Below, one piece after another: positions 31,957-35,502 of a stretch of DNA of 35,845 nucleotides. Position 1 is the stretch's first letter; every line of letters starts with the position of its first letter. The notes beneath the pieces were generated by a model, which was given only the letters and a program-made list of their open reading frames with translations, made no database searches and had not been told where the DNA came from. This stretch comes from a virus (taxonomy: Duplodnaviria > Heunggongvirae > Uroviricota > Caudoviricetes). The position numbers and the translations under genes were made by a program. Location: IMG/VR virus record IMGVR_UViG_2671180473_000015, one strand, 5' to 3'.

Positions 31957-34900
31957 ATGGGTAAAGGCAGCAGTAAGGGGCATACCCCGCGCGAAGCAAA
32001 GGACAACCTGAAGTCCACGCAGTTGCTGAGTGTGATCGATACCATCAGCGAAGGGCCGGTTGAAGGTCCGGTGGATGGATTAAAAAGCGTGCTGCTGAAC
32101 AGTACACCGGTGCTGGACAGTGAGGGGAATACCAACATCTCTGGTGTCACGGTGGTGTTCCGGGCAGGTGAGCAGGAACAGACACCGCCGGAGGGATTTG
32201 AATCATCAGGTTCCGAGACGGTACTGGGTACGGAAGTGAAATACGACACGCCGATCACCCGGACCATCACGTCGGCAAACATTGACCGTCTGCGCTTTAC
32301 CTTCGGTGTGCAGGCACTGGTGGAAACCACCTCAAAGGGGGACAGGAATCCGTCGGAAGTCCGCCTGCTGGTTCAGATACAACGTAATGGTGGCTGGGTG
32401 ACGGAAAAAGACATCACCATTAAGGGCAAAACCACCTCGCAGTATCTGGCCTCGNNNNNNNNNNNNNNNNNNNNNNNNNNNNNNNNNNNNNNNNNNNNNN
32501 NNNNNNNNNNNNNNNNNNNNNNNNNNNNNNNNNNNNNNNNNNNNNNNNNNNNNNNNNNNNNNNNNNNNNNNNNNNNNNNNNNNNNNNNNNNNNNNNNNNN
32601 NNNNNNNNNNNNNNNNNNNNNNNNNNNNNNNNNNNNNNNNNNNNNNNNNNNNNNNNNNNNNNNNNNNNNNNNNNNNNNNNNGGCAATACAGCGGTATCTG
32701 GGACGGAACGTTTAAGCCAGCATACAGCAACAACATGGCCTGGTGTCTGTGGGATATGCTGACCCATCCGCGCTACGGCATGGGGAAACGTCTTGGTGCG
32801 GCGGATGTGGACAAATGGGCGCTGTATGTCATCGGCCAGCATTGCGATCAGTCGGTGCCGGACGGTTTTGGCGGCACGGAGCCGCGCATCACCTGTAATG
32901 CGTACCTGACCACACAGCGCAAGGCGTGGGATGTGCTCAGTGATTTCTGCTCGGCGATGCGCTGTATGCCGGTATGGAACGGGCAGACGCTGACGTTCGT
33001 GCAGGACCGACCGTCGGATAAGGTGTGGACCTATAACCGCAGTAATGTGGTGATGCCGGATGATGGTGCGCCGTTCCGCTACAGCTTCAGCGCCCTGAAG
33101 GACCGCCATAATGCCGTTGAGGTGAACTGGATTGACCCGAATAACGGCTGGGAGACGGCGACAGAGCTTGTGGAGGACACGCAGGCCATTGCCCGTTACG
33201 GTCGTAACGTCACGAAGATGGATGCTTTTGGCTGTACCAGCCGGGGGCAGGCACACCGCGCCGGGCTGTGGCTGATTAAAACAGAACTGCTGGAAACGCA
33301 GACCGTGGACTTCAGCGTGGGTGCCGAAGGGCTTCGCCATGTACCGGGCGATGTCATTGAAATCTGCGATGATGACTATGCCGGTATCCGCACCGGCGGG
33401 CGCGTGCTGGCGGTAAACAGCCAGACCCGGACGCTGACGCTCGACCGTGAAATCACGCTGCCATCTTCCGGCACCACGCTGATAAGCCTGGTTGACGGGC
33501 AGGGGAGTCCGGTCAGCGTGGAGGTTCAGTCCGTCACCGACGGCGTGAAGGTGAAAGTGAGCCGTGTTCCTGACGGCGTTGCTGAATACAGCGTATGGGG
33601 GCTGAAGCTGCCGACGCTGCGCCAGCGCCTGTTCCGCTGCGTGAGTATCCGTGAGAACGACGACGGCACGTATGCCATCACTGCCGTGCAGCATGTACCG
33701 GAAAAAGAGGCCATCGTGGATAACGGGGCGCACTTTGACGGCGACCAGAGCGGCACGGTAAATGGTGTCACGCCGCCAGCGGTGCAGCACCTGACCGCAG
33801 AAGTCACCGCAGACAGCGGGGAATACCAGGTGCTGGCCCGCTGGGACACGCCGAAGGTGGTGAAGGGCGTGAGCTTCCTGCTTCGCCTGACCGTGGCAGC
33901 GGATGACGGCCGTGAGCGGCTGGTCAGCACGGCCCGGACGACGGAAACCACTTACCGCTTCACACAACTGGCTCTGGGGAACTACAGGCTGACAGTCCGG
34001 GCAGTAAATGCGTGGGGGCAGCAGGGCGATCCGGCGTCGGTATCGTTCCGGATTGCCGCACCGGCAGCGCCGTCGCGGATTGAGCTGACGCCGGGCTATT
34101 TTCAGATAACCGCCACGCCGCATCTTGCGGTTTATGACCCGACGGTACAGTTTGAGTTCTGGTTCTCGGAAAAACGGATTGCGGATATCAGGCAGGTTGA
34201 AACCACAGCCCGCTACCTTGGCACGGGGCTGTACTGGATAGCCGCCAGTATCAATATTAAGCCGGGCCATGATTATTACTTTTATATCCGCAGTGTGAAC
34301 ACCGTCGGCAAATCAGCATTCGTGGAGGCTGTCGGTCGGGCGAGCGATGATGCGGAAGGTTACCTGGATTTTTTCAAAGGCCAGATAACCGAATCCCATC
34401 TCGGCCAGGAGCTGCTGGAAAAAGTCGACCTGACGGAGGATAACGCCAGCNNNNNNNNNNNNNNNNNNNNNNNNNNNNNNNNNNNNNNNNNNNNNNNNNN
34501 NNNNNNNNNNNNNNNNNNNNNNNNNNNNNNNNNNNNNNNNNNNNNNNNNNNNNNNNNNNNNNNNNNNNNNNNNNNNNNNNNNNNNNNNNNNNNNNNNNNN
34601 NNNNNNNNNNNNNNNNNNNNNNNNNNNNNNNNNNNNNNNNNNNNNNNNNNNNNNNNNNNNNNNNNNATGCCATGTGGGGCGTCAAAATTGAGCAGACCAA
34701 AGACGGCAAACATTATGTCGCGGGTATTGGCCTCAGCATGGAGGACACGGAGGAAGGCAAACTGAGCCAGTTTCTGGTTGCCGCTAACCGTATCGCGTTT
34801 ATTGACCCGGCAAACGGGAATGAAACGCCGATGTTTGTGGCGCAGGGCAACCAGATATTCATGAACGACGTGTTCCTGAAGCGCCTGACAGCCCCCGCCA

Positions 34901-35502
34901 TTACCAGCGGTGGCAGTCCTCCGGTATTTTCCCTGACATCAGACGGAAAGCTGACCGCTAAAAATGCGGATATCAGCGGTAATGTGAATGCAAATTCAGG
35001 GACGCTCAACAATGTCACGATTAACCAGAACTGTACGATTAAGGGCATGCTGGAGGCGACCCAGGTCAGAGGAGATTTCGTTAAAGCTGTATCAAAAGCC
35101 TTCCCGAAAAAAGTCGGTACGTGGGGTAACACGGAAACACCAAACGGTACGGTTACAGTCACCATCAGCGATGATCATAACTTTGACCGCCAGATTATTA
35201 TTCCGCCCATTATTTTTAACGGTATAGCGTATGACGATCCGGGGAGCGGAAATAACCCAGGAGGCACGCGATACACGGGTTATGGTTTTGAAGTTCGCAA
35301 AAACGGCGTATTAATCGCATCCAGAGAAACTAAAGGGGCCATTCCCGGTAGTTACAGTGCAGTTATTGATATGCCTAGTGGTGGTGGTAGCGTCACTCTG
35401 GAGTTTAAGATTTTCCAGAAAGGCAATCAGGGGGCAGGCAATATCACCGACTGTACGGTGATTGTGACCAAAAAAGCCGCTTCCGGCATCAGTATTCGTT
35501 GA
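31957..35502 (+). CDS. J: tail tip / host-specificity protein J (interrupted by two N-runs; frame not continuous across them)
   Basis: N-terminus [39 protein letters not shown] and the middle segment ([33 protein letters not shown]...) match lambda J from memory. Three track ORFs (31957..32715, 32735..34765, 34672..35502) are segments of one gene broken by N-runs. The last 130 or so residues appear divergent from lambda J. Confidence 0.85.
32455..32681. other. N-run (227 nt) - assembly gap or masked sequence
   Basis: Continuous n characters inside gene J; the reading frame changes across it. Confidence 0.95.
34451..34666. other. N-run (216 nt) - assembly gap or masked sequence
   Basis: Continuous n characters inside gene J; the reading frame changes across it. 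Confidence 0.95.

Follow-up and report, generated by a model that had tools for sequence, protein, structure and literature searches.

In phage lambda, the C-terminal Ig-like domains of the J trimer dock on trimeric LamB with four distal loops, which enter its extracellular mouth; these receptor-binding domains (RBDs) spread as a result, and the movement travels along the central fibre to open the tail (PMC11101478). The same study modelled the lambda RBD on OmpC and obtained clashes (PMC11101478). Residues 960-1132 of J have been described as an independently exchanged specificity module with lineage-defining indels at positions 1012, 1048/49, 1077/78 and 1107 (Maddamsetti et al., PMC6646904), and mutations that switch the receptor fall at the loops around lambda positions ~1012 and ~1107 (PMC6646904; PMC11336670). 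When lambda J is replaced by the allele of phage 434, the resulting phage uses OmpC, the receptor of 434, as stated in PMC3509688 (which cites Fuerst & Bingham 1978) and PMC11101478. The C-termini of gpJ from natural E. coli prophages, grafted on lambda J, also deliver DNA via OmpC (PMC11338833), and phage 21, which natively uses LamB, adds OmpC by one mutation in J (PMC11336670). Among infant-gut coliphages, J forms clusters without a match to host range (PMC6969025).

Here we examined gene J in a 35,845-nt stretch of DNA from a virus of the class Caudoviricetes (IMG/VR record IMGVR_UViG_2671180473_000015), the whole of which we refer to as the window. An earlier note, made from the letters of the window, had proposed that the C-terminal region of J diverges from that of lambda in a manner typical of receptor-specificity swapping. 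The features on which our analysis bears are listed in Table 1.

Table 1. Position of gene J, its 3' segments and the adjoining features in the window
Feature	Position	Strand	Remarks
Tail tip / central tail fibre gene J	31957..35502	+	~1137 aa expected; stop codon 35500-35502; N masks 32455-32681 and 34451-34666
Unmasked part of the central straight fibre, J aa ~861-990	34667..35058	+	DNA 91% to lambda, 97-99% to 434 and mEp460_ev081; Pfam Phage_Tail_Tip
434-type (h434) RBD of J, last 147 codons, Ig-like GpJ_C	35059..35499	+	Pfam match spans 35089-35496
Terminator-like hairpin GGCGTCA-GGAA-TGACGCC (35525-35542) followed by TTTTTT	35525..35548	+	Between J and lom; read from the sequence
5' part of 434-type lom (Ail/Lom outer-membrane protein), truncated at the end of the window	35573..35845	+	Pfam Ail_Lom, E 3.5e-51

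In a lambda-like tail cluster, J comes after the genes for the tape measure, M, L, K and I and precedes lom and stf. J of the window fits this order, with lom downstream of it, and the gene order around it is collinear with the annotated loci of lambda, 434, mEp460_ev081 and E. coli prophages. The two masks leave three unmasked segments of the gene. In each of them the alignment to J of lambda, 434 and mEp460_ev081 is free of gaps, with DNA identities of 95-99%, and, of the uninterrupted frame of ~1130-1165 codons expected of a lambda-like gpJ, no in-frame stop was found in any of these three segments. Searches with Pfam profiles recovered the complete series of J domains across the unmasked segments, with FNIII-A_GpJ, Phage-tail_3, Ig_J, Ig_J_second, Phage_Tail_Tip and Ig_GpJ_C all in order and each above its curated cut-off.

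The N-terminal and central parts of J follow lambda J (NC_001416) as closely as the earlier note had supposed: 163/166 residues are identical over aa 1-166 and 572/589 over aa 255-843, and protein identity to lambda J is 97-98% as far as ~residue 860. Over aa 861-990, 118/130 residues (91%) match lambda J and 127/130 match 434 J. Read in 60-nt bins, identity to lambda falls from 97% to 90% (34907), 77% (34967) and 63% (35027) and then to ~30-50%, and blastn similarity to lambda ends at position 35058 of the window, which corresponds to nt 2970, or aa 990, of lambda J. Pairwise alignment of the last 147 aa with the last 142 aa of lambda gives 35% identity with 17 gap positions in four indels (blastp E 2e-25), which bears out the proposed divergence of the C-terminus from lambda J. 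The indels lie near lambda residues 1008-1012, 1043-1049, 1077-1078 and 1100-1113, in agreement with the published lineage-defining sites (PMC6646904). A LamB-binding RBD of the lambda type would be recognised by close identity to lambda J 991-1132, the loops at ~1012 and ~1107 among them, and we did not find such identity here. The ending KKQALGISVV that the earlier note gave for lambda J is correct, and the two peptides it quoted from the window are also present, the 24-residue one starting at 35077 and the 10-residue one closing the open reading frame at 35499. Its further statement that only the extreme end is conserved was right about the end itself but overstated in the word ‘only’: conserved blocks (GD.VKA.S.AFP, GT.TVT..DDH.FDRQI, NG..I, DMP.G.G.V.L.F and KK.A.GIS) run along the whole domain, and the Pfam profile Ig_GpJ_C (PF12421) matches it from end to end, with 91.7 bits (cut-off 26.2) and E 5.5e-26 over profile positions 1-134 of 135.

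The relationship to phage 434 is much closer, with sliding identities of 90-100% throughout J. Over the 836 nt of the unmasked 3' end we found DNA identities of 97.5% to 434 J and to lambda h434 imm21, and of 99.0% to mEp460_ev081. At the protein level, the last 147 aa differ from 434 J by four substitutions and no indel (97.3% identity), and they are the same, residue for residue (100%), in mEp460_ev081, Stx2a_WGPS6 and ASU11. In a tblastn search of 50,697 phage records the RBD identities were bimodal, with 74 records at or above 90%, 169 below 60% and none between, which indicates that RBDs occur as discrete types and that the one in the window is of the 434 type. It has at least 90% identity to the 434 J RBD, is free of indels and is separated by a gap from the other types, and these are the properties by which the 434-type (h434) class is defined.

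The likeness to 434 does not stop at the end of J, since identity to 434 is 85-100% across the intergenic region and lom. In 60-nt bins, the start of lom is 93-100% identical to 434 as against ~36-70% to lambda lom, and the non-lambda block at the 3' end of J takes in lom as well. A terminator is annotated in the 434 record in the same interval, between J and an Ail/Lom-type gene. A hairpin scan of the window returned the same hairpin that we read from the sequence (Table 1), but assigned it to the minus strand. At the other end of the window, the left 17 kb are like mEp460 and Ayreon (97.7% over ~75% of the length).

Most homologs recovered with the 147-aa RBD as query were partial fragments of J with nearly the same sequence. 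Several apparently diverged homologs were rejected: P0041, P0047, P0048, P0055, P0057 and P0058 are chimeric, truncated or frameshifted gene calls that share part of the domain, and P0032 carries an internal deletion. The sole genuinely different type among the diverged homologs aligned was P0050 (47%, BLASTP). Against the sequences of the PDB, the RBD matched gpJ only, with A8 gpJ as the best match. An AF2 model of the last 178 residues is all-beta; its pLDDT averages 72.8 and, taken in 10-residue blocks across the domain, mostly lies at 77-95 but drops to 51-71 in two of them; this is a monomer model of moderate confidence built on a shallow alignment of 14 sequences, because the homolog search had returned mainly near-identical fragments. 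When the model was compared with the PDB by Foldseek, the top four matches were the lambda gpJ RBD (8xck, 8xcj) and A8 gpJ (9wca, 9wcb), with E ~1e-14 and TM(query) of 0.63-0.65, and the next match was at 2e-4. The model thus predicts for the RBD the Ig-like beta-sandwich fold of the solved gpJ RBDs.

Overall, the 3' end of J (~35059-35499) encodes the phage 434-type allele of the Ig-like RBD, carried on an otherwise lambda-like J; the sequence comparisons show this directly, and OmpC is very probably its porin. Judged by its 97% identity to an allele characterised by others, J of the window would most probably have OmpC as its receptor. The swap of receptor specificity and the non-LamB receptor that the earlier note predicted are supported to the extent that the divergent block is the 434 allele, which published genetics tie to OmpC. 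Since the mechanism described for lambda, the genetics of the 434 allele and the existence of OmpC-using gpJ relatives point in the same direction, we infer that J of the window binds OmpC by loop insertion. By analogy with lambda, the J trimer would carry three RBDs at its tip, and their distal loops would reach into a trimeric porin from its extracellular side and so trigger the opening of the tail; the porin would most probably be OmpC, which 434 and lambda h434 also use. The allele itself probably arrived by homologous recombination in the conserved coding region of the central fibre, at ~34900-35060, and the exchanged block would run on downstream through lom. A search of the literature yielded nothing usable on the receptors of mEp460, mEp332 and the PhiR phages, and no receptor data for mEp460_ev081, Stx2a_WGPS6 or ASU11.

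To place the allele among E. coli genomes, we compared the distribution of the two types of J 3' end. The 434-type 3' end (444 nt) is present in 2112 of 5426 complete E. coli genomes, with 631 records at 99% identity or more, and the lambda-type 3' end (429 nt) in 98 of the same 5426 genomes, in all of them at 99% identity or more; the lambda-type carriers among the matches listed are laboratory lysogens such as BL21(DE3), C41, C43 and K-12 derivatives. In sequenced E. coli genomes, lambda's own RBD is rare and the 434 type is the form commonly met in nature, and with 2112 against 98 genomes a C-terminus unlike that of lambda J is to be expected. The pattern that the earlier note had read as swapped specificity probably does reflect a swap of alleles, but not a departure from the norm. 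The divergent block is an already described and very common allele of a well-studied module and is not new, and the observation, although correct, is an ordinary one that makes no question newly testable. Its use lies in annotation: the tail tip of this prophage is to be annotated as a J of the 434 type that is predicted to use OmpC, rather than as one of the lambda type with LamB as receptor. This bears on the prediction of host range and on which indicator strains or resistance mutants are chosen.

We considered whether the four substitutions that separate the RBD of the window from that of 434 (N1019 for D, I1108 for V, Q1110 for H and G1115 for R) could have shifted the specificity of an otherwise identical 434-type domain, either to certain OmpC variants only or to another porin (OmpF, LamB). 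The AF2 model places residue 1019 in a turn; residues 1108 and 1110 come at the C-terminal end of one strand, and the strand after it begins at 1115. All four align with the lambda regions at ~1012 and ~1107. The differences thus fall in or beside predicted loops, an equivalence that rests on the alignment with the published 1012 and 1107 sites. Variable positions of the 434 type are enriched outside predicted strands (19/63 versus 12/84; Fisher p = 0.025) in what is a small sample of cluster representatives. Consistent with such a shift, the gpJ chimeras A8 and 1A2 discriminate between OmpC variants (PMC11338833), and phage 21 goes from LamB to OmpC to OmpF by few mutations in J (PMC11336670); because the RBD of phage 21, a LamB user, is 81% identical to the OmpC-binding RBD of A8, receptor use appears to be labile in this family. 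We nevertheless regard a shifted specificity as unlikely, in view of the 97.3% identity to the characterised 434 allele and the absence of indels. It is further opposed by mEp332, one of the phages with an RBD 99-100% identical to that of the window, whose record names K-12 MG1655 as the host; in this same background, other gpJ chimeras were examined for OmpC-dependent delivery (PMC11338833). N1019, I1108, Q1110 and G1115 are common to P0001, which stands for 624 member sequences, and larger clusters carry other variants. It is unlikely that the allele of the window is functionally different from the laboratory 434 allele, with substitutions that would tune it to natural OmpC variants or add a second porin; if it were, the polymorphism of the 434 type would document a continuing arms race with ompC alleles.

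It is far less probable that the locus is an artefact of masking or assembly, i.e. a chimeric contig or the remnant of a pseudogene and not a working J. The two masks do interrupt the gene with lengths that break the frame, and ~310 nt of J, judged by the reference genes, lie under them and could hide an inactivating lesion. However, the masks are not true to length, with 227 N for 262 nt in the references and 216 N for 49 nt, and since mask lengths are arbitrary the apparent frame breaks in J are artificial. The start of an apparent ORF at 34672 is also a product of masking: we rejected this ATG as a true start, and 34672-35502 as a separate gene, as the codon is the internal Met862 of J, the frame runs on from 34669, and 34672 heads an ORF because the second mask sits just upstream. 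The collinearity of the three unmasked segments with reference J, free of gaps and in-frame stops, argues against an artefact, as does the recurrence of the K, I, J and lom arrangement in complete genomes. Of the complete E. coli prophages, that of NZ_CP062908 comes nearest (97.9%); its gpJ of 3414 nt, or 1137 codons, is intact, downstream of it come lom, a side tail fibre gene, tfaQ and pinQ, and this prophage adjoins ydfK and ydfJ; no match to the tail region of the window above ~98% was found among complete E. coli genomes. Moreover, 2087 complete genomes hold at least 80% of the 444-nt 3' end. Least probable of all is ordinary drift within a LamB-binding J that has left the phage dependent on LamB, for although the RBD is homologous to that of lambda over its full length and has the same predicted fold, it combines 35% identity with four indels in a gene otherwise 97-98% identical, the identities among phage records show no intermediates, the lambda-type 3' end is nearly invariant in the 98 genomes that hold it, and a near-identical 434 allele moves lambda to OmpC in the accounts of this exchange cited above (PMC3509688; PMC11101478).

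The reading that we favour, a 434-type RBD that would most probably bind OmpC, can be set against the described systems as follows. J of phage 434, or h434 (OL657226, OL657227; lambda h434 imm21, OM418627), shares with J of the window the gene, the expected length class (1137 aa), the junction to lambda-like sequence and the downstream lom allele, and differs from it by the RBD substitutions at 1019, 1108, 1110 and 1115 and by three more in the stretch of fibre before the RBD; the rest of the window is unlike 434 and resembles mEp460 and Ayreon. The RBD protein is 100% identical, and its DNA up to 99.8-100%, in J of mEp460_ev081 (LR597641), Stx2a_WGPS6 (NC_049945), ASU11 (ON416862) and many E. 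coli prophages. In E. coli Ec1115 the 444-nt RBD segment is 100% identical and the remainder of J and the tail genes 95-98%, with a gpJ of 3498 nt. The lambda J RBD (NP_040600 residues ~991-1132; PDB 8xck, 8xcj, 8iyk) has the Pfam family, the predicted Ig-like fold, the position at the tip and the core motifs in common with that of the window, but is only 35% identical to it, with the four indels at loop regions, and binds LamB. The A8 gpJ chimera (PDB 9wca, 9wcb; PMC11338833), a natural prophage C-terminus on the lambda J scaffold that uses OmpC, is among the top four structural matches, and its structure has been solved with OmpC of EDL933 (PDB 9wcb); its RBD, 41% identical to that of the window and 81% identical to that of phage 21, is nonetheless of a different type. 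We also examined the engineered gpJ A8 and 1A2 (PMC11338833) as candidates for the 434 type and rejected both, as the DNA strings of the window are absent from the supplement of that study, 1A2 ends in ...VMKKATAGITIS, and A8 has the low identity just given. Finally, J of phi330, an EHEC siphophage, is lambda-like and targets OmpC, as established by ompC knockout and complementation (PMC12502783); by the figures of that paper, its RBD is set apart as another type, with 35-40% identity to the RBDs of 434 and lambda (PMC12502783).

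Five runs of N interrupt the window, two of them inside J, the lambdoid tail-tip gene, and by comparison with reference genes neither J mask keeps the true length of the sequence it replaces. Since the mask lengths are untrue, ORF calls that span them are artefacts; the 'start' at 34672, which heads the interval singled out in the earlier note and is in fact the internal Met862 of J, and the apparent frame shifts in J are of this kind.

Features compared in J and masked runs in the window
Feature	Sequence	Coordinates	Remark
J of phage 21	OL657228	2694-6176	compared with PDB 9wca
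gpJ of E. coli Ec1115	NZ_CP126614	locus positions 4947-8444	3498 nt
N run	window	14901-15140	
N run	window	30118	
N run	window	31564-31843	
N run, in J	window	32455-32681	227 N; 262 nt in reference genes
N run, in J	window	34451-34666	216 N; 49 nt in reference genes

The Ec1115 gene exceeds the 434-type J (3414 nt) by 28 codons and diverges from the window J between locus positions 7443 and 7766, yet over its final 444 nt it matches the window at 100% identity. This indicates that J has another variable segment, located upstream of the receptor-binding domain (RBD). In the central fibre, J residues 902-932 align with lambda J without differences. This peptide triggers HepS, the abortive-infection nuclease of Gifsy-1, with Q922 and F924 as key residues (PMC13043305), and HepS-carrying hosts would be predicted to sense the window phage. 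The trigger is intact in the window J, where residues ~921-925 correspond to 34849-34863. Downstream, lom (35573-35845) is of the 434 and not the lambda type, so the non-lambda block runs beyond J, at least to the window end.

The early and regulatory half (1-17000) is mEp460-/Ayreon-like (97.7% over ~75%). In the RBD segment, identity is 92% to reference mEp460 but 99.8% to mEp460_ev081, a pattern typical of a lambdoid mosaic. Among known systems, the phage 21 RBD shares 81% identity with that of A8 gpJ (PDB 9wca), a chimera carrying an E. coli prophage gpJ C-terminus on lambda J. LamB is the native receptor of phage 21 (PMC11336670) and the A8 gpJ RBD structure was solved in complex with OmpC (9wcb); this pair might reveal the residues that decide between LamB and OmpC.
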